DNA from: a bacterium
GTDB taxonomy: Bacteria > UBA8248
NCBI GenBank assembly: GCA_965207065.1
Contig: OZ242260.1
Location: 3,104,001 to 3,168,000 of the forward strand
Length of the DNA: 64,000 bases
Reading direction: 5' to 3'
In this document: in pieces, positions 3,745 through 26,594 of the stretch
Layout of the letters: each line of letters starts with the position of its first letter
Position numbering within the stretch: the first letter of the stretch is position 1
Notes under the pieces: model-generated
What the model saw: the letters and a program-made list of their open reading frames with translations, nothing else
Database searches by the model: none
Told to the model about the DNA's origin: nothing
Position numbers and translations under genes: made by a program

Positions 3745-5016
3745 ATGAAAATTCGGACTCTCCTCATTTTGGCAGCTCCGGTTGCGGCTGCTGTCTATTT
3801 TCTGCACTTCAATCGAGAAATCATTGACCTGCGTCTCACCGAAGCCTGGTCTGTGCGAGTTCCATTAGCTCTTGTGGTAATCGGAGCGGCTCTCATTGGT
3901 TCGTTTTTGGCTTCTGTTCTTGGGTGGGGCGACGCTGCACTCGGTTGGATATCGCGTAAGAAGATCTCCAAGAAACAAAAACGTTTACATCGCGCCCAGG
4001 AGCGATTTACCAGGGCTCAAAGCCTCGGAATTCAAGGTAAAAGAAGGCGCGCTCGAAGAGAAGTCAAGCGTGCACTCAAGGACGATCCTTCTTTTATGCC
4101 AGCCTTGAGGCTAGCTGCCGATTTGGCGATAGATTCTGGAAACCCCAATGACGCTATTCAATGGAATGAACGCCTTCGTGCTGTGACGAACAACTCGCCT
4201 GATTCTATTATCCGATTGTCTGAGACTCTCGATCATTCCGGCCAGGCAAAAGAAGCTCTCGAGCTACTTGCGCGAAACAGTAGAGGGAGAGGCGCGAGCC
4301 CTCAGGTGTTGCGAAAACTCCGGGATATGTACCTGGAAAACGGCCGTCTCGAAGCTGCTGTCGAAATTTGCGAGAAACTCTCACAGACGGGAGTATCGGA
4401 TTTGGTTCGACAAGAAGATACCCTAATCGCTGGTCGCGCGTATCTGGCGATTGGTGAGGCGAAATTAAATGGTTCTGACCCAGAGACGGCCATTCCGTCT
4501 TTAGAACGGGCTCTACGCCATCTGGCCAACGAGAAAAACGCATATCTTTTGTTGGGTGATGCGCAGTTAGCAGCAGGTCGTGAACGACGAGCTCTACGTA
4601 CTTGGGAAAATGGCTATCAGACTTTGGGTGGTTTAGAGTTTCTACAAAGGCTAGCGTCATCAGTTGGGCCTTTGGAGTCACAGAGCGCGAAAAAAAAAGC
4701 TGCTGCAAATATTCAATCAGCAGGGAAGCGCAGGGAGAAGGATATATATCATAACGTGTTACATGCAGCGTTAATGCTCGAAACAGGTCAAATCGAGAAA
4801 GTCGAAAAAAGTTTGGAACAGGCATCTGCGAAGACCATGTCCATAGAGGGTGAGGATTCTTGGGTACGCCTGGCTCTTCATTTGATTGAAGCGCGATGTT
4901 TACAGGAAAAAGGCGAGAGGCTGGCAGCAGAAAATGAATTCAAAAAAACAGCGCAAGAGGCATCAAGAATTCTTTTGGGCAAATCAATTTCTGGAACGGA
5001 GTTGAAGCCATATTGA
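3745..5016 (+). CDS. LapA-like N-terminal membrane domain fused to TPR repeats (LapB-like)
   Basis: Two hydrophobic segments flanking FNREIIDLRL...VPLALVV, followed by helical TPR-like repeats; no C-terminal rubredoxin CxxC pairs. Confidence 0.6.
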   Translation: MKIRTLLILAAPVAAAVYFLHFNREIIDLRLTEAWSVRVPLALVVIGAALIGSFLASVLGWGDAALGWISRKKISKKQKRLHRAQERFTRAQSLGIQGKRRRARREVKRALKDDPSFMPALRLAADLAIDSGNPNDAIQWNERLRAVTNNSPDSIIRLSETLDHSGQAKEALELLARNSRGRGASPQVLRKLRDMYLENGRLEAAVEICEKLSQTGVSDLVRQEDTLIAGRAYLAIGEAKLNGSDPETAIPSLERALRHLANEKNAYLLLGDAQLAAGRERRALRTWENGYQTLGGLEFLQRLASSVGPLESQSAKKKAAANIQSAGKRREKDIYHNVLHAALMLETGQIEKVEKSLEQASAKTMSIEGEDSWVRLALHLIEARCLQEKGERLAAENEFKKTAQEASRILLGKSISGTELKPY

Positions 5017-13371: not shown

Positions 13372-15414
13372 ATGACGAAATTCTCGACAGAGAAAGAGCG
13401 GTTCTCCGGCATGAGCATCTCCGAACAATCGATTCACACTATACGCACACTTTCGATGGATGCGGTGCAAGAGGCGAACAGTGGCCATCCGGGTACGCCA
13501 ATGGCTCTGGCGCCGCTGGCGTATGAGTTGTGGATGAACCACCTGCGCTATAATCCCCGAAATCCAGACTGGTTTGATCGGGACCGCTTCGTGCTTTCTT
13601 GTGGTCATGCCTCCATGCTTCTTTACGCGATTCTCCATCTGAGCGGCTATGAGCTTCCTCTCCATGAGATTGTCCGTTTTCGTCAATGGGGGAGCAAGAC
13701 GCCAGGGCATCCCGAATACGGGCTTACGCCGGGTGTCGAGACTACGACAGGCCCATTGGGACAGGGGTTCATGAATGCACTGGGCATGGCGATGGCGGAG
13801 GCGCATTTGGCGAGCGTTTTCAATCAGCCAGGCCACTCGGTAGTGGACCACCGTACGTACGTGTTCATGAGCGACGGCGATATCATGGAAGGCGCCTCCC
13901 ATGAAGCAGCATCCCTCGCTGGACATCTGGGTCTTGGTAAATTGATTTGTGTGTATGACGATAACCGCATCACCATCGATGGCGAAACGTCGTTAAGTTA
14001 TTCCGATGACGTAGTGAAGCGCTTCGAGGGGTACAACTGGCATGTACAAAATCTGGGTGATAAGGCGGAGGATTTAACCAAAATATCCAGTGTGCTCAAT
14101 CTGGCGAAGGCGGAGGCTGAGCGTCCGTCTTTGATCGTCGTTCGCTCGCACATTGGGTATGGCTCGCCTCGATATCAGGATACCGCGCGCGCGCATGGCG
14201 CTCCCTTGGGGCATGAAGAAATCGAGGCTACAAAAAGGAACTATGGCTGGCCTGAGAGTGAAACGTTTTTGGTGCCGGATGAGGTATCCACCCACATGGG
14301 AGAGGTGGTTTCCCGCGGCGCGGCGCTCGAAGAGGATTGGAATCGCCGTTTTGCGAAATATGAATCGGAGAATCCGGAACTGGCCGCGAAGTTTCAGGCA
14401 GCACTTGGAGGTGAGCCGCCAGCCGGTTGGGAGAAGCGTATTCCCCGGTTCCAGGCAGACGATGGGGCGCTCGCTACGCGGGCGGCATCTGGCAAAGTAT
14501 TGAATGAAATCGCCTCCGCCATCCCCTGGCTGATTGGCGGAAGCGCGGACTTGGCGGCTTCGAACAACTCGCTCATCAAAAAATCGGGAAATTTCGCCCG
14601 GGGAGACTACGTCAGTCGCAACATCAACTGGGGGATCAGGGAACACGTCATGGGGGCCGCCAGTTCGGGGATGGTCCTGCATGGAGGTGTTCGTCCGTAT
14701 GCGGCCACTTTTTTCACATTCACCGATTATGCCCGCCCGGCGATACGCCTGGCGGCGCTGATGGAATTGCCCGTCATTTATGTGATGACGCACGACTCTA
14801 TTGGCCTGGGCGAGGATGGCCCCACTCACCAGCCGGTTGAGCACCTCGCATCGCTTCGCGCCATGCCGGGCCTCACCATTATTCGTCCATGCGACGCGAA
14901 CGAAACCGCTGTCGCTTGGCGAGTGGCGATCGAGCGTCTCGAAGGGCCGACCATGCTCGTGTTGACTCGCCAGGGCTTGCCTGTTCTGGAGCGGTCGGAG
15001 AAAAACGGAGCGGAGGCGCTGGCGCGGGGAGCCTATGTCATCTCACCCGAGAGCGGGAATTCCCCCCAAGCCGTATTGATTGCGACTGGCTCGGAGGTGA
15101 TTCTCGCGATGGAGGCGCAAAGCGCGTTGGCGGTAGATGGAATCGATGCCCGGGTTGTGAGTATGCCGAGTTGGGAACTTTTTCGGGAACAATCTTCTTC
15201 CTATCAGGACTCCGTTCTTCCGGCGGGAGTCAATGCCAAAGTGGCGATTGAGGCGGGCGCCTCCATGGGCTGGCGCGAGTGGGTAGGAGATAGTGGCGCC
15301 GTGATTGGAATTGATCGTTTTGGGGCGAGCGCGCCGTACAAGGAGATTTACGCCCATTTCGGCCTCACGCCGGAGAACGTCGCCGCGCAGACGAAGCGCA
15401 TTCTCGGCGCGTGA
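13372..15414 (+). CDS. tkt: Transketolase
   Basis: [46 protein letters not shown]; start may be 13411. Confidence 0.97.
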
Positions 15415-16169
15415 TATCCACCCCCTGCCGCATGAGAAATATGCCGAATCCCTGAAATACCCGAAAACCAACAGATTATTCCCCTGTATTTGTGGCGAAA
15501 TCCCTTTCACCATCCTGAATGGACGCGAATTTATCCCGTAATTCCCCTTGAGACGCCGTCCGTATTTCCCCGCGGATGCCCGCATTTGCCGTTGCGCCGC
15601 TCCTCCCTGAGACGTGTATCCTCACGATTGTTTCCGGCGGCGGGGGAGTTGCGCCACCGCGCAGAGCAAAAAATTTATTGAAATACCTCGTGAATTTATC
15701 GGATTTTATTTGAATTTATCGAATTTTTCGGAAATTCCCCCGCTCGAATAGGGCGCGAATCGCTCCGGTTCAGGCATGAACACCCGGCTTCCTTGGAAAG
15801 CGCCGCCTTTTCCGATTCAGCCCACTCGTCCGGCCCGAGCCCGGATTCTCCGTAAATCGGACCGAAACCGTATATAGCGTTGGTATAAAAACAAGGAATT
15901 TATAACCAACAACATATGGCCTGCATCGCAGGTCGGCCCCTAGGATGAAGATAGCAAAATCCAAATAGGGGATTGACCACGATGATTCGCGTTCAAATCG
16001 CATCCACGCTGTGCCTGCCGGGTAGAGCCGTGCCCGTTCCGCTCTCTTTGGGCGACGGCGCCCAGGCAGACGACCGCGATGAATGTCGGCGCGGTTTTCG
16101 GAGCGGCTTCATCAGAATCCCGGTTGATTCATCCGGTCCTGGTTGATCACGATGCGCGGAGCAAAACCA

Positions 16170-19016
16170 ATGGCAAGAACAATTCTCTCTGAAATTTCAC
16201 TTTTGGCCATATTATTTTACTTCGTCTTGGCTTTCGGCGTAATGGACAAAGACGTCGCGTTCGCTGGTAAATGGGGAGACGAGTTTTCCAGCACCATCCA
16301 TTCCACCGACCATCCGGATCCGATAACAGGTATCTTCGGAGCCAAAAGAGAGACCAGTACAAAGGATAGTCTCCAAAGTATCATCGTTGCTTTTGGAGTT
16401 CAGGCCATGTCGGATGACGACGACGATGGTGACGATGACGACGGTGACAACGACAGCGATGACGATGACGACGATGAAAACAGGTCTATAGTCACAACTA
16501 CCAACAAGGAAAGCACCACGCCCATCAGTCAGCAAAGCACCACGTCCACCAGCACGCAAGATAGTGACGATGATGACGACGACAATGATGACAACGACAG
16601 CGATGATGACGACGATGATGGAAGCAGTTCGTCTACTTCGCCCACCAGCACGCAAGATAGTGACGATGATGACGACGACAATGATGACAACGACAGCGAT
16701 GATGACGACGATGATGGAAGCAGTTCGTCTACTTCGCCCACCAGCACGCAAGATAGTGACGATGATGACGACGACAATGATGACAACGACAACGATGATG
16801 ACGACGATGATGGAAGCAGTTCGTCCACTTCGTCCACCAGCACGCAAGATAGTGACGATGACGATGATGACGGCGATGACGACGACAACGACAGCGACGA
16901 CGATAACGACAATGATGACGATGATGATGGCAGAATCGGCAATTTGGTATCATCGGTTCGCAAAGGGTCCTTGTTGAAGGAAGTCAAGGCAAACCCGGCG
17001 CTGGCGAAGGGCGTTGCGGGGAACATCAAGCGGGCGGGGGGCGCGCGGCCTCTGGGGTCAACGCCCACGACCACGTCGGAGGAGACGAGCAGCACGACAC
17101 AATCGTCTTACCTCTCCGGCGGTCGCGCCTCGAAGACGAGCAGCACGACGCAATCGTCCTATATTTTCATCACGTCTTACCTCTCCGCCGATCCTGCCTC
17201 GAAGATGAGCAGCACGACGCAATCATCCTCTCTCTCCGGCGGTCGCGTCTCGGACCCCTCGTACTTCCTCGCCGAGCGTGACGCGAACGGGGACGTGCAG
17301 TTCACCTTCAAACGCAAAACCGGCTCCACAGTCTCGACCCTGAGCACGACGGATCTGGACGTATCGTCGAGAAGGGTGGACGATCTGGCGTCGGGCTGGA
17401 GTGGTGTCGAGACCCACAAGGATGCGACGAACGGCATTTTCAACTGGGACGCCTACGTCGACAGCCAGGGCAATGCGGACGCGGACTATCTCTCGCTGGG
17501 TACGTGGCTGTACATCTACAAGGACCCCGAAGACGGCAGCTTCACCGGATCGTACGATCTGGGCGTCGCCGCAGGTGGCAACGATCCCTTCGAGAACGAG
17601 AATCTCGCCGGACTTACGGGCGCGGCGACCTACAGCGGGCCCGCGACCGGTCTGTACATGATGAAGACGGATGCAGACGCGGATCCCGCATTCGATTACT
17701 TCGACGCGCGAGCGGATCTGGCGGTCGATTTTGGGGATGCGACTGCACTGGGAACCCTCTCGGGGTCGATTACGGGGGGCAGTACGGATGGAGGTGTGTC
17801 CCTGCCCGCGTTGACCCTGGGTTCCGCCGACATTACCGGTGCGGTCCTCGGGGGGAACTTCGATGGCGATACCAGCGGGGAGACGGTTGACGGCGTCACT
17901 CTCTCGGGCAAGTGGGGGGGTAAGTTCTTCGGAAACCGTGCCAGTTCGACGGGTCATCCCGGCTCAGTGGCGGGCACCTTCGGAGCTAACGCGGCGGACG
18001 GCCTCCAGAGCATCATCGGTGCCTTCGGGGCAAAACGTACACCTTCCCCGGTTCGCTACGGATCCTTGCTGAAGGAAGTCAATGAGAATCCGACCCTGGC
18101 TAGGGGTGCCGCAGTGCGCATCCTGAGGGCCGGGGGCGCGCGGCCTCTGGGGTATACGCCCGCCTCGGAGGAGATGAGCAGCACGACGCAATCATCCTCT
18201 CTCTCCGGCGGTCGCGCCTCGGACCCGTCGTACTTCCTCGCCGAGCGTGACGCGGACGGAGACCTGCAGTTCACCTTCAAGCGCAAAACCGGATCCACCG
18301 TCTCGACCTTGAGTACGACGGATCAGGACGTATCGTCGAGAGGGGTGGACGATCTGGCGTCGGGCTGGAGTGGTGTCGAGACCCACAGGGATGCGCCGGG
18401 CGGCATTTTCAACTGGGACGCCTACTCCGACAGCCAGGGAAATTCGGATGCGGACTATCTCTCGCTGGGTTCGTGGCTGTACATCTACAAGGACCCCGAA
18501 GACGAGAGTTTCACCGGCTCCTACGCCCTGGGCGTTGCGGCCGGCGGGAACGATCCTTTCGATAACGACAACCTCGCCGGGCTGACGGGCACGGCAAGCT
18601 ACAGGGGGCCTGCGACCGGCCTGCACATGATGAGGGCGGATACGAACGCGGACCCCGTATTCGACTATTTCGACGCGCGAGCGAATCTGAGTGTCGATTT
18701 TGGGGACGCGACCGCGCTGGGAACCGTCTCGGGGACGATAACCGGGGGCAGGACGGATAGAGGCGTGTCCCTGCCTGCGTTGACCCTGGATTCTGCGGAC
18801 ATCACCGGCAGCGCCCTCGGGGGGAACTTCGATGGCGACACCAGCGGCGTGACGGGCGATGGCAACGCGCTCTCGGGTAAATGGGGGGGTAAGTTCTTCG
18901 GAAACCGCGCCAATTCGGACGATCATCCCGGTTCGGTGGCGGGCGCCTTCGGGGCCAACACGGCGGACAACCTCCAGAGCATCATCGGCGCCTTCGGCGC
19001 CAAACGAACGCCGTAA
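16170..19016 (+). CDS. Secreted protein with poly-Asp tandem repeats and two TbpB-like (transferrin-binding-protein-like) beta-barrel domains
   Basis: Signal-peptide-like N-terminus with no Cys; Asp/Ser repeats; two near-identical domains with DYLSLGxW, GxAxYxGPATGL, VDFG, GKWGGKFFG, PGSVAGxFG, ending GAFGAKR. Confidence 0.75.
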   Translation: MARTILSEISLLAILFYFVLAFGVMDKDVAFAGKWGDEFSSTIHSTDHPDPITGIFGAKRETSTKDSLQSIIVAFGVQAMSDDDDDGDDDDGDNDSDDDDDDENRSIVTTTNKESTTPISQQSTTSTSTQDSDDDDDDNDDNDSDDDDDDGSSSSTSPTSTQDSDDDDDDNDDNDSDDDDDDGSSSSTSPTSTQDSDDDDDDNDDNDNDDDDDDGSSSSTSSTSTQDSDDDDDDGDDDDNDSDDDNDNDDDDDGRIGNLVSSVRKGSLLKEVKANPALAKGVAGNIKRAGGARPLGSTPTTTSEETSSTTQSSYLSGGRASKTSSTTQSSYIFITSYLSADPASKMSSTTQSSSLSGGRVSDPSYFLAERDANGDVQFTFKRKTGSTVSTLSTTDLDVSSRRVDDLASGWSGVETHKDATNGIFNWDAYVDSQGNADADYLSLGTWLYIYKDPEDGSFTGSYDLGVAAGGNDPFENENLAGLTGAATYSGPATGLYMMKTDADADPAFDYFDARADLAVDFGDATALGTLSGSITGGSTDGGVSLPALTLGSADITGAVLGGNFDGDTSGETVDGVTLSGKWGGKFFGNRASSTGHPGSVAGTFGANAADGLQSIIGAFGAKRTPSPVRYGSLLKEVNENPTLARGAAVRILRAGGARPLGYTPASEEMSSTTQSSSLSGGRASDPSYFLAERDADGDLQFTFKRKTGSTVSTLSTTDQDVSSRGVDDLASGWSGVETHRDAPGGIFNWDAYSDSQGNSDADYLSLGSWLYIYKDPEDESFTGSYALGVAAGGNDPFDNDNLAGLTGTASYRGPATGLHMMRADTNADPVFDYFDARANLSVDFGDATALGTVSGTITGGRTDRGVSLPALTLDSADITGSALGGNFDGDTSGVTGDGNALSGKWGGKFFGNRANSDDHPGSVAGAFGANTADNLQSIIGAFGAKRTP
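16545..16930 (+). repeat. In-frame 96-bp tandem repeat (32 aa, poly-Asp)
   Basis: Units start at 16545, 16641, 16737 and 16833; three near-identical units plus a diverged fourth. Confidence 0.95.
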
Positions 19017-19078
19017 ATTCGGATGCTCCTTCAGGAGGCCGAGCAGAAAATCCCTGGAGCTTTGTTGAGGAACGCTGA

Positions 19079-20446
19079 ATGAGCGCCAGGAAAGTTGTCG
19101 GGCATTTGCGTGAAAGGCTTTCCGAACCGATTGACATCGCTTCGCTGGTAATGGTCCGGATTTTTTTCGGGCTGATCATGCTGTGGGAAGTCGCGCGGTA
19201 TTTCAAGAAGGGCTGGATTCATAAATACTGGATCGCGCCGGATTTCCATTTTCACTACTTCGGGTTTGACTGGGTCGCGCCCTGGCCCGGCGACGGAATG
19301 TATTGGCATTTCCTGGGACTGGGTTTTCTGGCCCTGCTCATCACCATCGGCTTGTTTTATCGCGTGGCCGCCGCACTTTTCTTCGTCGGTTTCAGCTATA
19401 TCTTCCTGCTCGAGCAGGCGCGCTACCTGAACCACTTCTATCTCGTGTGCCTGGTGAGCTTCCTGATGGCGATCATTCCGGCGGACCGGGCCGTGTCGCT
19501 GGACGCGAAGCTCGGCTTCTGCGAGGGAGCGGATACCGTCCCCGCTTGGAGCCTGTGGATTCTGCGCTTCCAGGTGGGCGTCGTCTATTTCTACGGCGGC
19601 ATCGCCAAGCTGAATGCAGACTGGCTGGCCGGGGAGCCGCTTAGAAGCTGGCTGCACAAACGCATGGATTTTCCGTTGATCGGCCCCCTTTTCGGGCAGG
19701 AGCCGGTCGTCATGCTCATGAACTACGGCGCTCTGTTCTTCGACCTGCTCATTGTGCCGCTCCTGATGTGGAGAAGAACCAGGGGCGTGGCGTTCGCTGG
19801 CGTGCTGTTTTTCAACCTCACCAACGCCGTCATCTTTCACATCGGCATTTTCCCCTGGTTCGCCATTGCCCTCTCCACGGTGTTCTTCGCTCCCGACTGG
19901 CCTAGGCGATATCTGATCCTAGAAGAAAATGAGGCGGCGACACCACCCGGCCCAAGCCTTTGTTCCCGCGTCTTGCTCGCATTCCTCGCGGTTTATGTGT
20001 GCTGGCAACTGTTGTTGCCTCTGAGGCACTGGCTCTATCCCGGGAATGTGAACTGGACCGAAGAGGGGCATCTCTACGCCTGGCACATGAAGCTTCGCAG
20101 CAAATCCGGGCGGGCGAGATTCATCGTCACCGACAATGCGGGAAACGAGTATAAAATATCCCCCACCCGCTACATCAAAAAGTGGCAGGCGAGGAAAATG
20201 GCCGCCAGGCCGGACATGATTCATCAATTCGCCTACTATCTGGGCGATCGGTTGCGGGCGGAAGGAATGAGGGTGTCCTCGATCCGAGTCGACGCCAGGG
20301 TATCCCTGAACGGCCGGAGGCGGCAGCGCTTGATCGCCCCGGACGTCAACCTCTTGAATGAGCCGCGCTCGATTTGGCCGAAACATTGGATCAATCCCCT
20401 GGAGGTGCCTCTTCATGAGCGTCGCCGGAAGGGGAGGAAAAAATGA
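19079..20446 (+). CDS. HTTM-domain vitamin K-dependent gamma-carboxylase-like membrane protein
   Basis: FHFHYFGFDWV, YLNHFYL, VYFYGGIAKLNADWL, IGIFPW, WTEEGHLYAWHMKL, PDMIHQFA, SLNGR. Confidence 0.9.
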   Translation: MSARKVVGHLRERLSEPIDIASLVMVRIFFGLIMLWEVARYFKKGWIHKYWIAPDFHFHYFGFDWVAPWPGDGMYWHFLGLGFLALLITIGLFYRVAAALFFVGFSYIFLLEQARYLNHFYLVCLVSFLMAIIPADRAVSLDAKLGFCEGADTVPAWSLWILRFQVGVVYFYGGIAKLNADWLAGEPLRSWLHKRMDFPLIGPLFGQEPVVMLMNYGALFFDLLIVPLLMWRRTRGVAFAGVLFFNLTNAVIFHIGIFPWFAIALSTVFFAPDWPRRYLILEENEAATPPGPSLCSRVLLAFLAVYVCWQLLLPLRHWLYPGNVNWTEEGHLYAWHMKLRSKSGRARFIVTDNAGNEYKISPTRYIKKWQARKMAARPDMIHQFAYYLGDRLRAEGMRVSSIRVDARVSLNGRRRQRLIAPDVNLLNEPRSIWPKHWINPLEVPLHERRRKGRKK

Positions 20447-20648
20447 ATTCAGCCATGAATAGTTATAACCTTCAACAGGAGTCGGGATTGCTTCGCTCTC
20501 GTCGAAACGGTTCGGCCAGTTTGATCATTCCCATTACGGGTGGCGCTGGCTCAGTTCTCTTGATGAAATTCATGTTTCGTGGAAGTGAACGCTGGATTCG
20601 AAACGCTTTGGCAAGGAGAATTTGGATCTGGAACCGAAGGAGGCGGGC

Positions 20649-21083
20649 ATGACTTCACATAAGGCCGAACGCATTGAACCCGCCGATATATCCTCGCAGG
20701 ACGCTTTTCTTCTCTATGACGGCGAGTGCCCGTTTTGCAGCTTTTACGCGCGAAAATCGCGGTTCGAGACGCAAACGGGGCGGTCCTTGAAACTTATCGA
20801 CGCAAGCCGGGCGCCCGTGCTCGTCGATAAGCTGCGGCGCGAGGGATGCGACATCGAGGCGGGGATGATTCTCATCCTGGATGACCGGCGCTACCAGGGC
20901 GCGGCGGCGATGACCGCGCTCGAGGCGATGACGAGTGGAGACGACTGGTTTAACCGGCTCATGAGGTGGTTTTCTTCGAATCCACGACGCGCACGCATCC
21001 TCTACCCATGGCTCCGAATGCTGCGCCGTGCGGCCCTTTGGGTGAGGGGCAAAGGCAGGTTCACCATTTCCGGTCGGGACTGA
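20649..21083 (+). CDS. DCC1-like thiol-disulfide oxidoreductase (DUF393)
   Basis: LLYDGECPFC motif; AAGGAGG RBS before the ATG at 20649. Confidence 0.85.
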   Translation: MTSHKAERIEPADISSQDAFLLYDGECPFCSFYARKSRFETQTGRSLKLIDASRAPVLVDKLRREGCDIEAGMILILDDRRYQGAAAMTALEAMTSGDDWFNRLMRWFSSNPRRARILYPWLRMLRRAALWVRGKGRFTISGRD

Positions 21084-21121
21084 TTCGCCTCAGTCGGGCT
21101 TCCCGAGGGGAAACCCCATAA

Positions 21122-21272
21122 AAGCAACCCCCCCTACCCCCCCTTGTCAGGGGTCAAACGCGAGTGAGGAACGAGCGTTTGCATAAGCCATTGGCGGGAA
21201 ACGCATCGGTTTGCAATTCCTCCCTCCTCGGTCGGCATTGACCCCTGACAAGAGGGGGTAGGGGGGGTGCTT
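21122..21272. repeat. Intergenic inverted repeat pair (REP-like)
   Basis: Arm 21122-21157 (...ccctacccccccttgtcaggggtcaa) is nearly the reverse complement of arm 21238-21272; lies between convergent genes. Confidence 0.8.
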
Positions 21273-21487
21273 CTGACGAGGACTCTTTCATCGGGCATTC
21301 CCCTCGGGATGCCCGACCCCACTAGCGGAAGTGAATTGCTCTCTCGCCGGATGGTAAAAACTCTCAAGAGGGGAGTCGTTTCATAAGAATATGTTGATTG
21401 GAGAAGTCCATTGCCAGACAGGAAGGCATTCCAACAACTCCCCAGGGGGCGTTGTTCTCTGGTTTCGGCATGCCCACCGACTCGGAA

Positions 21488-22021
21488 TTACTCTCGTCCG
21501 GCGGGGTGAACCACGTCGGACGAAGAGTCTTCCAGGACGGGAGCCAGCAGGTGATGGATGATCTCGGCGACGAATTCGCCGCGCCCGTGCACGCCGGCCT
21601 TTGCGTAGAGAGCAGTGGCTTGCAGCCGCGTGGTGTTTTCCTTCACTTGGCGCAGTTCGGCGATTTCGGCGAAGCGGTAACCTTTGATAATCATCCACGC
21701 AATTTCTCTTTCACTGGGAGTCAGTTTCCACCCATCCATCTGTACTTCGATGCCGGCGGCAAGCTCGCCTGCGAGCGCCTTGTTTCGGGTCCTCTCCCGT
21801 TGAAGGCGCGTTCGCAAGTCGGCGAGATCACGCAAACTGATAATAAGGACCACCAATACGAAGAGGAATACAATTGCTTCGATAATAAAATGCGTGGAGG
21901 CGAACTCCCCCTCCAAAGCTGCGTCGGTGATGAGGTCGTAAACCAGAAATAACGCAGCCGGAAGTAGGATGCCGATTCTGAGAATTACTTGTGAATTGTA
22001 ATTTTTTAGTATGCTTCTCAC
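21488..22021 (-). CDS. Membrane-anchored LuxR-family transcriptional regulator
   Basis: Two N-terminal TM segments; LTPSEREIA...KG...EIAELR...LYAKAGV HTH. Confidence 0.85.
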   Translation of the reverse strand: MRSILKNYNSQVILRIGILLPAALFLVYDLITDAALEGEFASTHFIIEAIVFLFVLVVLIISLRDLADLRTRLQRERTRNKALAGELAAGIEVQMDGWKLTPSEREIAWMIIKGYRFAEIAELRQVKENTTRLQATALYAKAGVHGRGEFVAEIIHHLLAPVLEDSSSDVVHPAGRE

Positions 22022-22271: not shown

Positions 22272-23591
22272 ATGTCGAAAAAATATCGATTGTCCGGGTG
22301 GATGATATGGGCCGGCGCTCTGGCGCTGCTCGTCGCGGGGGTGGCGGTGGGCCCCGTCACGAATCCGGCGGCGAGCGAGACGAGCGCGTATTCGGAGCTG
22401 AGGGCCTTCAGCGAGGTCCTGAGCCTCGTCGAGGAGAACTACGTCAACAAGGTGGACGCCAAAAAACTGATTCGCGGCGCCATCCGCGGCATGCTTCGCA
22501 CGCTGGACCCCCATACGACTTATCTGAATCCCGAATTCTTCAAAGAGATGCAGGTGGAAACCACCGGCCGCTTCGGCGGTCTGGGGGTGGAGATTTCGAT
22601 CCGCGACGGCGTGCTGACGGTGGTGACGCCAATCGAGGATACCCCGGCGCACAAGGTCGGCGTGCAGGCGGGCGATCAAATCGTCTTCATCGAGAAAGAC
22701 CCGACGAAGGACATGCCGCTTCAGGAGGTCGTCAAGAAGCTTCGGGGCAAGCCCGGCACGAAGGTGAAGATCACCGTGAGGCGCAAAGATGTGAAAGAAC
22801 TGCTCGACTTCACCATCACGCGCCAGATCATCCGCATCAAGAGCGTGCGAAGCCGGATGCTGGCGGACGATATCGCCTATATACGGGTCCGCAGCTTCCA
22901 GAACGGCACGGGTCGGGAAGTCAAGGATGCGCTTTCCTCGCTCATGGGTGAGGGCGCCAGGGCCCTCGTGCTCGATTTGCGGAACAATCCCGGCGGTCTC
23001 CTCTCCCAGGCGGTTTCGGTGTCCGACGTTTTCCTGGAGGCGGGCAGCCTGATCGTCTACACCAAGGGCCGCATGACCGATCAGGAGCATCGCTTCACCT
23101 CCACGCACGAGGTGCCGGGCGGGAAGATTCCCATGGCGGTGCTCGTGAACGCGGGCAGCGCGAGTGCTTCGGAGATTGTGGCGGGCGCGCTCCAGGATCT
23201 GGGAAGGGCCAAGCTCATCGGCGTCAAGACGTTCGGTAAGGGCTCGGTGCAGACCGTCGTTCCGCTCTCGGACGGCTCGGGGCTCAGGCTGACCACAGCG
23301 CTTTATTTCACGCCCAAGGGAAGGCGCATCCAGGGCGAGGGAATCGAACCCGACATCGTCAGCGAGGTGGAGAGAAGCACCGGCGTCGCGCGCATGATGC
23401 GCGAGAAGGACCTGCCGGGGCATCTGCCGAGTGATGCGGAGAAAAAAGGGGAGGGCAAAGAAGACGCTCCGGGCGGTGAGCAAGCCGGCCAGTCTCAAAC
23501 CCCCGCCGAAGAAGAGAGAAAAGACACGCAACTCGAGCGCGCCGTCAAATACCTCAAGGATTCATTCTTGAGCAAGAAGATGGGCGCCTGA
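22272..23591 (+). CDS. ctpA: Carboxy-terminal processing protease, S41 family
   Basis: LDPHT, PDZ (GLGVEI), DLRNNPGGLL, SASASEIVAGALQD, TFGKGSVQ. Confidence 0.94.
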   Translation: MSKKYRLSGWMIWAGALALLVAGVAVGPVTNPAASETSAYSELRAFSEVLSLVEENYVNKVDAKKLIRGAIRGMLRTLDPHTTYLNPEFFKEMQVETTGRFGGLGVEISIRDGVLTVVTPIEDTPAHKVGVQAGDQIVFIEKDPTKDMPLQEVVKKLRGKPGTKVKITVRRKDVKELLDFTITRQIIRIKSVRSRMLADDIAYIRVRSFQNGTGREVKDALSSLMGEGARALVLDLRNNPGGLLSQAVSVSDVFLEAGSLIVYTKGRMTDQEHRFTSTHEVPGGKIPMAVLVNAGSASASEIVAGALQDLGRAKLIGVKTFGKGSVQTVVPLSDGSGLRLTTALYFTPKGRRIQGEGIEPDIVSEVERSTGVARMMREKDLPGHLPSDAEKKGEGKEDAPGGEQAGQSQTPAEEERKDTQLERAVKYLKDSFLSKKMGA

Positions 23592-24235: not shown

Positions 24236-25432
24236 ATGCCCAGAAGAAGCGAACTCAAAATTACCAAGCGCACGGTCGACGCGCTGAACGTCGAGGCGGG
24301 GGACGCCCTCTTCTGGGACCGGGAGCTGGCCGGCTTCGGGGTGCGGGTCCACGCCACGGGCAGGAAAGTCTACGTGGTGCAGTCCCGTGGACCTGGAGGG
24401 CCGAAGAGGGTCACCCTGGGCCGGCACGGCGAGATGCCGGCGGATGAGGCGAGGAGGCGCGCAGCCCTCGTCATCGACCGGATCAAGCGGGGCGAGGACC
24501 TTGAGCCAAGGCCACCCGTGGCGGAACTCACGGTAGCCGGCCTGGCCGAGCGCTTCATGCGGGTCCACGTCGGCGTGCACTGCAAGCCGGGCACCGCGGC
24601 GGGGTACCGCTCCGTGCTCGATGGACACATTCTGCCGGCGCTGGGAGAAATGCCGGCGGCTGCGGTCGGGCGGGGGGAAGTCTCGGCGCTGCACCACCGG
24701 CTCCGGAGCACGCCCATCCGGGCGAACGCGGCGGTGGACCTTCTGTCCGAGATGTTCTCGCTGGCCGGGGCGTGGGAACTGACTCCGCCCGGACGCAACC
24801 CGTGCCGGGGGTTGAGACGCTACAGGACGCGTCCGCGCGAGCGGTTCTTGAGCGATGAGGAGTTCCGTCGTCTGGGCCGTGCGCTCAAGGACGCGGAGGG
24901 GACGACCTGGCCGCCCGCGCTCGCGGCGATCAGGTTGTTGATCCTGACCGGGTGCCGGAGGGGCGAGATACTCGGGCTGCGCTGGGAGGACGTGGACCGC
25001 ACGGCCGGCGAGTTGAGGTTGCGCGACGCAAAGACGGGCCCGCGCATGGTTCCCCTGACGACGCCCGTGCTGGAGGTGCTGGACGGCATCCCCCGCTCGC
25101 CTGAGAACCCGTGGGTGATCGCGGGACAGAAGGCAGGGAGTCGCCTGTCGAACCTCTACCACTACTGGGAGCCTATCCGGGAGCGGGCCGGGCTCGGTGA
25201 CGTGCGGATTCATGACCTGCGCCACTCGTATGCCAGCCGCGCCCTGGCGCTGGGCGAGGGTCTGCCCGCGATCGGCAGGCTGCTCGGACACTCGAAGGTG
25301 TCGACCACGGCGCGTTACGCGCACCTGATGAGGGACGCCGAGAAGACGGCGGCCGCCCGCGTGGGCGAGAGCATCGGGGCCCACATCGTCTCGCGCAAAG
25401 GCGTAAAAGAAGGAATGAACGGAGATGGCTAG
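24236..25432 (+). CDS. Tyrosine integrase with N-terminal arm-binding domain
   Basis: WDRELAGFGVRV arm domain; TGCRRGEI, KTG, HDLRH, LGH, TARYAH. Confidence 0.93.
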   Translation: MPRRSELKITKRTVDALNVEAGDALFWDRELAGFGVRVHATGRKVYVVQSRGPGGPKRVTLGRHGEMPADEARRRAALVIDRIKRGEDLEPRPPVAELTVAGLAERFMRVHVGVHCKPGTAAGYRSVLDGHILPALGEMPAAAVGRGEVSALHHRLRSTPIRANAAVDLLSEMFSLAGAWELTPPGRNPCRGLRRYRTRPRERFLSDEEFRRLGRALKDAEGTTWPPALAAIRLLILTGCRRGEILGLRWEDVDRTAGELRLRDAKTGPRMVPLTTPVLEVLDGIPRSPENPWVIAGQKAGSRLSNLYHYWEPIRERAGLGDVRIHDLRHSYASRALALGEGLPAIGRLLGHSKVSTTARYAHLMRDAEKTAAARVGESIGAHIVSRKGVKEGMNGDG

Positions 25433-26594
25433 ACCGAAGTATCGAACGCTCTCGAGCCGGGCGGTCGGGAAGCTTGAGGTGGAAAAGGACACGGTGTTCT
25501 GGGATGGGGAACTCACCGGCTTCGGCGTCAGGGTCTATCCCACCGGAGCCAGGGTGTATATCGCCCAGGCCCGGGGACCGGAGGGTCCCAAACGTGTAGC
25601 GGTTGGCCGGCACGGGGTGATCAATGCGGAGCAGGCCAGGCGGCGCGCGGCTTTGATCATCGCCCGGGTCAAGGCCGGCGAGGAGCCGGCGCCCGAGCAG
25701 ATGAGAGCGAAGGACGGGCCGAGTGTGGCCGAGCTCGCGAAACGCTACTCCGAAGAACACCTCGCGGTGCGGTGCAAGCCGGGGACGGAGGCGCTGGTCC
25801 GCTCGGTGGTCGACAAGCACATCGTGCCGGCTTTCGGGAAGCTGCCGCTCGCGGAGGTCGAGCGTGCGCAGGTGGTGGAACTGCACCAGCGGCTGTACGA
25901 GACGCCCTCGACGGCGAACCTGGCGGTCCGCACCCTGTCCTCGATGTACCGCCTGGCGGGGGCGTGGGGACTCGTTCCCGAGGGATTGAACCCCTGCCGC
26001 TCCATCGCCAGGTATCCCGGGCGCAGGCGCGAGCGCTTCCTGACGGATGAAGAGTTCGTCCGCCTGGGAGAGACCCTCGATGAATTCGAGACGGCGGGCG
26101 GCGCGTCGGCGCCCGCGGTGGCGGCCATCCGTCTCCTGATGCTGACCGGGTGCCGGAAGAGCGAGATACTGAAATTAAGTTGGGAGGACGTGGCCCTGGG
26201 TGAGAGCGAACTGAGGCTGCCCGACACGAAGACGGGGGCAAGGGTGGTTCCGCTCTCCCCGCCTGCGGCCGCGCTCCTCGCCGGCCTGCCGCGCCTGCCC
26301 GGCAATCCCTGGGTCATACCCGGCAGGAAGCCGGGCGCGCATCTGAAGAACCTCGACGAGGCCTGGCGGGCCGTCCGGGCGCGCGCGGGTCTCCACGACG
26401 TCCGCATTCATGACTTGCGTCATTCCTACGCCAGCCGGGCGCTGGCCCTGGGCGAGGGACTGCCCATGATTGCGAAACTGTTGGGCCACGCCCACGTCGA
26501 GACCACGGCTCGCTACGCGCATCTGGCGCGCGATTCGGTGCGCGAGACAGCGGAGCGCATAGCCGTGAGCATCGCGGCCGATATAAGGGCCTGA
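25425..26594 (+). CDS. Second tyrosine integrase, paralogue of the upstream gene
   Basis: WDGELTGFGVRV; TGCRKSEI, KTG, HDLRH, LGH, TARYAH; overlaps the upstream gene by 8 nt. Confidence 0.93.
   Translation: MARPKYRTLSSRAVGKLEVEKDTVFWDGELTGFGVRVYPTGARVYIAQARGPEGPKRVAVGRHGVINAEQARRRAALIIARVKAGEEPAPEQMRAKDGPSVAELAKRYSEEHLAVRCKPGTEALVRSVVDKHIVPAFGKLPLAEVERAQVVELHQRLYETPSTANLAVRTLSSMYRLAGAWGLVPEGLNPCRSIARYPGRRRERFLTDEEFVRLGETLDEFETAGGASAPAVAAIRLLMLTGCRKSEILKLSWEDVALGESELRLPDTKTGARVVPLSPPAAALLAGLPRLPGNPWVIPGRKPGAHLKNLDEAWRAVRARAGLHDVRIHDLRHSYASRALALGEGLPMIAKLLGHAHVETTARYAHLARDSVRETAERIAVSIAADIRA

Follow-up and report, generated by a model that had tools for sequence, protein, structure and literature searches.

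What do the vitamin K-dependent carboxylases (VKGC) of bacteria act on? Bacterial VKGC homologues are widespread, and to our knowledge the sole member whose substrate is known works on an intermediate of antibiotic synthesis; a recurrent protein substrate that could be defined by its sequence would make the function of these enzymes directly testable. The question is raised here by a stretch of 64,000 nucleotides (nt) from a bacterial genome (GTDB lineage UBA8248; assembly GCA_965207065.1, contig OZ242260.1, positions 3,104,001 to 3,168,000), hereafter the window, in which the list of open reading frames (ORFs) and Pfam matches define a 6.9-kb accessory cassette with four genes at 16170-22021. 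The first of these encodes a secreted protein that carries a long poly-Asp array ahead of two TbpB-like barrels, and the second, 62 nt downstream, encodes a VKGC homologue; a DCC1-like CxxC protein and a small LuxR-like regulator complete the set. We argue that some direct functional link between the enzyme and the poly-Asp protein is very probable. With considerably less assurance, and judging from sequence comparison and structural models, we lean toward the view that the cassette is a menaquinone-dependent protein carboxylation system whose substrate is the Asp array of the co-encoded secreted protein, with Asp as the residue carboxylated. The wider proposal, that a sizeable subset of bacterial VKGC enzymes have exported poly-Asp tracts as their natural protein substrates and convert them to poly-(beta-carboxy-aspartate), strikes us as evenly balanced.

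The carboxylase

By every sequence and fold criterion applied, the second protein is a member of the VKGC family, and its activity is predicted. Its matches to HTTM (PF05090, E 4.5e-89, 298.9 bits) and VKGC_lumenal_dom (PF22777, E 6.4e-45, 153.2 bits) both stand far above the cut-off of 27.7, and among solved structures it matches human GGCX only (PDB GGCX chains, E 9e-43), with which it shares the same two domains and 26-29% identity over ~460-480 columns. The AlphaFold2 model built on a 58-row alignment has a mean predicted local distance difference test score (pLDDT) of 94.1 and a predicted template modelling score (pTM) of 0.92. When this model was searched with Foldseek, all 16 PDB matches with E <= 0.001 were human GGCX (TMq 0.68-0.86), with TMq of 0.82-0.86 against the substrate- or ligand-bound forms; modelling against GGCX, which a preliminary description of the locus had proposed, has therefore returned the same fold.

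Eight of the nine GGCX active-site residues that were checked are kept. The published roles given here are those in PMC12647623. The catalytic base Lys218 corresponds to K177, which lies within the motif GIAKLNADW, and its stacking partner Trp223 to W182; Asp263 corresponds to D222, the quinone-sandwiching pair Phe286 and Met401 to F245 and M337, Phe299, which stacks CO2, to F258, and Asn159/His160, which bind the substrate carboxylate, to N118/H119 within the motif NHFYL. The reading of GIAKLNADW as the catalytic Lys region in the preliminary description was thus correct. Quinol deprotonation would be served by the same residues in both enzymes; of the four residues that handle CO2 and the substrate carboxylate, three (Asn159, His160 and Phe299) are shared. 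Across a 41-row alignment of homologues the eight residues (N159, H160, K218, W223, D263, F286, F299 and M401 in human numbering) are kept in nearly all rows, the exceptions being L031, which has Val at M401, and L039, which has a gap at N159/H160, and the catalytic Lys and Trp are invariant in the 58-row alignment. The ninth residue, Tyr395, contacts the Glu substrate in GGCX and is replaced by His331. The bacterial enzyme also differs from the human one in length (455 aa vs. 758 aa): the alignment stops at human residue ~514, so that it lacks an equivalent of the final ~240 residues of GGCX.

The periplasmic (lumenal) domain of the carboxylase is strongly basic, with a net charge of +20 in 170 aa. 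Across the homologues the mean charge of this domain is +10.7 for poly-Asp-linked enzymes (n = 9, with the genus collapsed) vs. +4.5 for the others (n = 46; p 0.013), a comparison in which related enzymes are not independent. Complex prediction for the carboxylase with residues 33-115 of the poly-Asp protein, run without controls, gave an ipSAE of 0.01, a value that speaks neither for nor against an interaction.

The poly-Asp protein

The N-terminus of the first protein, MARTILSEISLLAILFYFVLAFGVMDKDVAFA, resembles a signal peptide, Sec type by appearance, that ends in VAFA before GK, and the start codon adopted agrees with the homologues P0001 and P0005. The array itself is made of Asp with N, G and S, and contains a 96-nt tandem repeat (16546-16891, 3.6 copies, 96% matches). 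The remainder of the protein consists of two ~300-aa repeats, each of which matches TbpB_B_D (PF01298) above the cut-off when searched alone; the Pfam search with the full-length protein gave no TbpB match. In this respect it resembles the TbpB-like surface lipoprotein barrels, and relatives at ~50% identity in other genomes are indeed lipoproteins. Unlike them, the window protein has no lipobox Cys (its N-terminus reads AFA-GK, whereas the relatives P0007 to P0022 have LAGC or LTGC) and bears Asp runs where the relatives have Gly/Pro linkers.

Within the 4.48-Mb genome the pairing is exclusive, as a six-frame scan (at least 10 D in 15 residues) found poly-Asp open frames in one place only, and the single HTTM match in the genome adjoins that sole poly-Asp gene. 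At least 12 further TbpB-like paralogues lie elsewhere in this genome (G000; for example C1:1613368-1614240, 1503393-1503935 and 3989844-3990407), none of them with a poly-Asp tract. For a bacterium that is no host-iron-piracy pathogen, the family is large.

The array is variable in length. Across DNA runs, in-frame insertions of 6, 9 and 30 nt and deletions of 3 and 9 nt were seen, some contigs omit 211 or 442 nt of it, and a relative that is 95% identical (L084) has more repeat units. A fragment at 16266-16403, directly after the signal peptide, resembles the last two strands of the protein's own barrel (GKWG…GIFGAK…LQSIIVAFG), which suggests that the gene arose when tandem barrels recombined and that the Asp array was inserted where they joined.

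Poly-Asp tracts beside other carboxylase genes

If the Asp array is the part of the protein that matters to the enzyme, similar tracts might be expected beside other VKGC genes. Loci were fetched by similarity to the carboxylase, 41 from species genomes and 80 from metagenomes (the best 80 of at least 514 matches), and tracts were called at 10 or more Asp in 15 residues in a six-frame, stop-to-stop scan. Among the species-genome loci 7 of 41 have a tract near VKGC, and among those from metagenomes 15 of 80. Collapsing enzymes at 90% nucleotide identity reduced the 121 loci to 103, of which 16 have a poly-Asp tract within ~3.4 kb of the VKGC gene; where at least 3 kb is present on both sides the count is 13/45. 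Tract density in successive 1-kb bins from the gene is 34, 28, 49, 17 and 9 per Mb and falls to zero in the 281 kb available at 5-8 kb. The whole-genome background is far lower, with tracts in few places per genome, roughly one or less. Of the (GAY)6 matches, every one adjoins the carboxylase in G042 (3.4 Mb) and G362 (8 Mb), as do 8 of 9 in G000. Four further loci (L020, L022, L093 and L113) are marginal under relaxed thresholds and stand outside the 16.

The enrichment is specific to one residue. Among homopolymer-like tracts near VKGC, Asp alone is enriched; those of Gly, Pro, Ser and Arg are about as frequent there as in the genome of the window. No poly-Glu was found in the cassette, and the 103 loci hold a single such tract (L039, ~5 kb from the gene and on the opposite strand).

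The carriers of the tracts comprise at least ten unrelated proteins, all of which have a signal peptide, a lipobox or an N-terminal anchor by inspection. They include a pseudopilin with an N-methylation motif (L011, L015), a subtilase (L092), an SLH-domain protein (L100), a TadE-like protein (L144, L149), a DUF11-repeat protein (L161), PepSY-like lipoproteins that flank the enzyme on both sides (L014), a DUF5666 lipoprotein with a C-terminal Asp tail (L009), a 106-aa protein with little beyond a signal peptide and an Asp tail (L150), and lipoproteins without family (L099, L133), the first of which is 252 aa long and almost all D/E. By inspection, no motif is shared by the flanks of the tracts of different carriers, and no propeptide is recognisable. 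The linked enzymes fall into at least six separate clades in a tree of 95 enzymes. The neighbours at 33 loci without a tract are mixed housekeeping genes, among which only DCC1-like (twice) and DUF11 (once) recur from VKGC-adjacent families. We also considered the tract as a C-terminal sorting signal, by analogy with sortase substrates, and rejected this since the tracts are in many cases internal and are not followed by a transmembrane segment.

The survey of HTTM gene neighbourhoods proposed in the preliminary description thus bears out linkage to poly-Asp (16/103) and to DCC1-like genes (12/103), and does not bear out the TbpB-like part. The TbpB-like fold is incidental to the conserved pairing and joins VKGC in this genus only.

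Two of these loci call for separate mention. At L009 (4268-7963), which holds the nearest relative of the enzyme outside the genus, a frameshift near 4920, possibly a long-read assembly error, interrupts the gene for the Asp-tailed DUF5666 lipoprotein. What lies between this gene and that of the carboxylase is an OmpR-type two-component pair with a small membrane protein, and not a LuxR-like gene. At L014 (11474-13120; Saprospiraceae) a further PepSY-like lipoprotein with a mixed D/E tail is accompanied by a protein with a PSCyt1/cytochrome c domain, which hints at a larger redox-linked surface module.

Comparison with known systems

Human GGCX with its gamma-carboxyglutamate (Gla) proteins is the obvious reference. 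Like a Gla protein, the substrate proposed here is exported, acidic and multiply modifiable; unlike a Gla-type substrate, it offers runs of Asp in place of Glu and lacks a recognisable propeptide. The quinone would be menaquinone in place of phylloquinone, and a DCC1-like CxxC protein is encoded in the operon of a genome in which no VKOR was found.

In malonomycin biosynthesis the VKGC orthologue is MloH (Law et al., 2018, cited through PMC12647623 and PMC12186529). The preliminary description had stated that it acts on an aspartyl moiety, and both citing sources agree. Like the window's enzyme, MloH is a bacterial family member, and it has been shown to carboxylate an aspartyl unit. Unlike the proposed substrate, that of MloH is a polyketide-peptide intermediate within a biosynthetic cluster, whereas the cassette holds no nonribosomal peptide synthetase or polyketide synthase and offers a ribosomal, exported protein as the candidate. 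HTTM-DCC1 fusions with a DUF5819 partner have been proposed to form a bacterial vitamin K-dependent carboxylation complex, with no substrate named (bioRxiv 10.64898/2026.08.19.745780). HTTM and DCC1-like modules are paired there as they are here. However, in those systems the two are fused and the lumenal domain comes from the separate DUF5819 protein, whereas in the cassette the DCC1-like protein is separate, the enzyme includes its own lumenal domain and a candidate substrate is encoded next to it.

A literature search that covered few subscription journals returned no paper that connects poly-Asp or protein beta-carboxy-aspartate with bacterial VKGC or HTTM proteins. Beta-carboxy-aspartate was reportedly observed decades ago in hydrolysates of bacterial ribosomal protein, and the rat liver carboxylase is said to be weakly active on Asp peptides.

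The DCC1-like protein and the proposed quinone cofactor

The third gene of the cassette encodes a protein with the motif YDGECPFC, in which CPFC forms an N-terminal CxxC, and without an N-terminal signal sequence. It is one of two DCC1-like genes in the genome. Two MqnA-family matches, a marker of the futalosine pathway, were found in the same genome. DCC1-like neighbours elsewhere were sought by motif scan followed by Pfam; the 12 counted among the 103 loci have Pfam matches, and the motif-only candidates L091, L095 and L101 were left uncounted. Single-sequence phmmer and jackhmmer searches from the DCC1-like and LuxR-like proteins of the window found only close relatives. At L127 (6556-7749, minus strand) a 390-aa protein encoded next to the carboxylase has the DCC1-like domain as its C-terminal part, where the free-standing form elsewhere has 140-160 aa.

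Proposed mechanism and its rivals

How could such a system operate? The poly-Asp protein would be exported through Sec, and its disordered Asp array would pass an active site that is expected to face the periplasm because the homologous site of GGCX faces the lumen of the endoplasmic reticulum. K177 would deprotonate menaquinol, oxygenation of the quinol would make a strong base, and this base would take a proton from the beta-CH2 of Asp, the carbon beside the side-chain carboxylate, comparable to the gamma-CH2 in Glu. Addition of CO2 would then give beta-carboxy-aspartate, with many residues modified per tract, and the product would be a surface densely set with chelating groups of malonate type and joined to a TbpB-like binding module. 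The basic periplasmic domain may serve to hold the polyanionic tract; no GGCX-type propeptide is evident. The DCC1-like protein probably supplies reducing equivalents, returning menaquinone epoxide to quinone or quinol in place of VKOR, and the regulator probably controls the operon through a conserved block at 15868-15918.

The alternative that survives best accepts the link and changes the chemistry: the tract would be a docking element, the counterpart of a propeptide, with other residues modified, or the enzyme would be mainly a menaquinol epoxidase or oxygenase. GGCX is described as needing a separate recognition element (PMC12647623), and the absence of its C-terminal ~240 residues from the bacterial enzyme, the very basic periplasmic domain and the replacement of the substrate-contacting Tyr395 would all suit such an arrangement. 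The Leptospira orthologue, reportedly an epoxidase that does not carboxylate, points the same way. However, L150, L099 and the C-terminal tail of L009 hold little besides a signal peptide and an Asp run, which leaves few other candidate residues for modification, and the residues that hold CO2 and the carboxylate (F299, N159 and H160) are kept, so that we consider this alternative unlikely. A second possibility is that the two proteins share a theme only, such as the handling of Ca2+ or other metals or contact with minerals at the cell surface. Poly-Asp binds cations without modification, and the VKGC would in that case act on a small molecule or lipid. MloH shows that members of the family can act on small molecules (PMC12186529), and most VKGC loci have no poly-Asp neighbour. 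Nevertheless, the tract is all that the ten or more unrelated carriers have in common, it lies close to the gene and often in the same operon direction, and the cassette holds no small-molecule biosynthetic genes, which makes a merely thematic association quite improbable in our estimation. Chance, whereby low-complexity acidic proteins and VKGC genes would co-occur on mobile islands, draws some support from a cassette that is accessory and mobile in the genus, with a MITE-like repeat and two integrase genes nearby, but is scarcely credible given a tract density near VKGC more than 100 times the whole-genome background and zero beyond 5 kb, an enrichment specific to Asp, and a pairing that recurs in at least six enzyme clades, in several phyla and with different carriers.

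Carboxylation of the Asp array, the reading toward which we lean, must itself be set against a number of observations that weigh on the other side. The His at the position of Tyr395 occurs in most bacterial homologues of the 41-row alignment, poly-Asp-linked or not, and is thus characteristic of the bacterial enzymes without singling out this locus; the same alignment revealed no residue that would mark an Asp-specific subtype. The Leptospira orthologue, in work of Rishavy and colleagues from 2005, reportedly had epoxidase without carboxylase activity. MloH, the only characterised bacterial member, is described in PMC12186529 as alpha-carboxylating the aspartyl unit of a small molecule and not of a protein. 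The lack of a signal sequence on the DCC1-like protein means that it would act from the cytoplasmic side. Two metatranscriptome runs yield short RNA contigs, of 157 and 214 nt in the poly-Asp gene, 160 nt in the carboxylase gene, and 293 and 181 nt in the regulator gene; DNA carry-over is possible for them, and none spans 19016-19079.

The distribution of the pairing belongs on the same side of the balance. No tract is present at 87 of the 103 loci, many of which have short flanks, nor at 32 of the 45 with good flanks. The VKGC lumenal domain is present in 63 of 301 evenly sampled Bacteroidota genomes, and an adjacent D7 run was found in 0 of 62 further VKGC-bearing genomes of that phylum, G041, chosen for its pairing, being the only one to have it. 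Since the (GAY)7 pattern would catch 13 of the 16 positive loci, the difference in Bacteroidota is real and not an artefact of sensitivity. Poly-Asp also occurs without VKGC, as (GAY)7 is present in 57 of 238 VKGC-negative Bacteroidota genomes; the genome-level comparison with VKGC-positive ones (30/63) is confounded by shared ancestry and carries little weight. In the phylum of G361, VKGC is present in 2 of 251 genomes, too few to inform, and the one further VKGC-bearing genome there has no tract within 8 kb of the gene. The coupling of enzyme and poly-Asp therefore holds in a minority of VKGC clades, that of the window included, and elsewhere the substrate is unlinked or different. The pairing put forward in the preliminary description stands in so far as it recurs in other organisms with unrelated exported carriers, and must be narrowed in so far as it is confined to some clades.

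The cassette, its regulation and its mobility

The features of the locus are collected in Table 1. The ORF list of the window confirms the four genes where the preliminary description had placed them, including the secreted Asp-rich protein and the HTTM/VKGC homologue 62 nt apart on one strand; its naming of the YDGECPFC protein as DCC1-like agrees with a PF04134 match above the cut-off, and the convergent gene that it called a transmembrane LuxR regulator does encode a hydrophobic N-terminal half. The locus is contained in DNA runs labelled sponge metagenome.

Table 1. Features of the cassette and its flanks (positions in the window)
Feature	Position	Strand	Remarks
Transketolase gene (tkt)	13372-15414		left flank of cassette
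Conserved upstream block, candidate promoter/operator	15868..15918		alignment of 4 cassette upstream regions
Secreted poly-Asp/TbpB-like protein, 948 aa	16170..19016	+	ORF opens at TTG 16143, likely start ATG 16170
Poly-Asp array, proposed substrate tract	16404..16934	+	five blocks with >=10 D per 15 residues
TbpB-like beta-barrel copy 1	17616..18038	+	PF01298, 31.1 bits vs. cut-off 26, residues 238-378 of window:16905-18077
TbpB-like beta-barrel copy 2	18585..19007	+	PF01298, 32.9 bits vs. cut-off 26, residues 170-310 of window:18078-19013
Vitamin K-dependent carboxylase homologue (VKGC/HTTM), 455 aa	19079..20446	+	Pfam, PDB match, AlphaFold2 model
DCC1-like CxxC protein	20622..21083	+	PF04134, 36.9 bits vs. 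27.8
Small LuxR/GerE-like regulator	21488..22021	-	weak GerE match; convergent with operon
CtpA-type S41 peptidase gene (ctpA)	22272-23591		right flank of cassette

Across the genus the four genes change position together, as a cassette, which upholds the linkage first proposed. The carboxylase gene is present in 4 of 23 genomes of the genus and was found nowhere else among 51 genomes of the phylum. All four VKGC-bearing genomes of the genus have (GAY)6 runs beside the carboxylase; of the 19 without the enzyme, 15 have no such run and 4 have isolated matches. The cassette lies between tkt and ctpA in G000 and G015 and at other sites in G012 and G010. In the latter two tkt and ctpA are direct neighbours, an arrangement found in 15 of 21 other genomes of the genus. 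Two tandem tyrosine-integrase-like ORFs (398 + 389 aa, mutually similar) at 24236-26594, where the local G+C is 0.64-0.68, probably represent an integrated element directly 3' of ctpA.

A palindromic element of ~165-185 nt, with G/C-rich terminal inverted repeats (…CCCCCCCTTGTCAGGGGTCAA … TTGACCCCTGACAAGAGGGGG…), lies at 21106-21290 between the DCC1-like and regulator genes. The intergenic stretch that contains it has 91 blastn matches genome-wide and reaches a depth of ~1000-2000 in DNA runs, with many loose ends, and the element looks like a repeat of the miniature inverted-repeat transposable element (MITE) type.

The regulator combines its hydrophobic N-terminal half with a C-terminal helix-turn-helix of LuxR/GerE type. 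Its scores against GerE (E 6.5e-4, 19.7 bits, cut-off 23.5) and against NCBIfam LIC13292_fam (E 5.6e-14, 52.6 bits, far below the cut-off of 200) do not reach the cut-offs, so that by sequence it shows a resemblance to these two families and no more. The gene is present in all five related cassettes that cover its position (L006, L007, L008 and L084/L085) and nowhere else among the 121 loci. The block at 15868-15918 (…TATATAGCGTTGGTATA…TATAACCAAC…), ~250 nt 5' of the start codon, is the only long conserved stretch upstream of all four aligned cassettes, including L007, which sits in a different genomic context, and we take it to be a candidate promoter or operator of the cassette. Further upstream, ~450 nt 5' of the poly-Asp gene, AT-rich direct repeats with a spacing of ~10 nt (TGAATTTATCG…) occupy 15691-15736; they are kept in L084 and partly in L008, and may be a binding array for the regulator or for a nucleoid protein.

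Significance

If the proposal holds, the cassette would be a bacterial counterpart of Gla modification, with the first dedicated enzyme for peptidyl beta-carboxy-aspartate and a DCC1-like protein standing in for VKOR, and the link to DCC1 may explain how quinone epoxide is recycled in bacteria without VKOR. The tract would then be a portable module, borne by pilins, proteases, S-layer-type proteins, lipoproteins and TbpB-like binders alike, that provides an extremely strong cation- or mineral-binding tail, and it would amount to a genetically encodable and very dense chelating tag. Should Asp indeed be the residue carboxylated, bacteria would have a new post-translational modification system, and the biology of vitamin K would extend beyond Glu.

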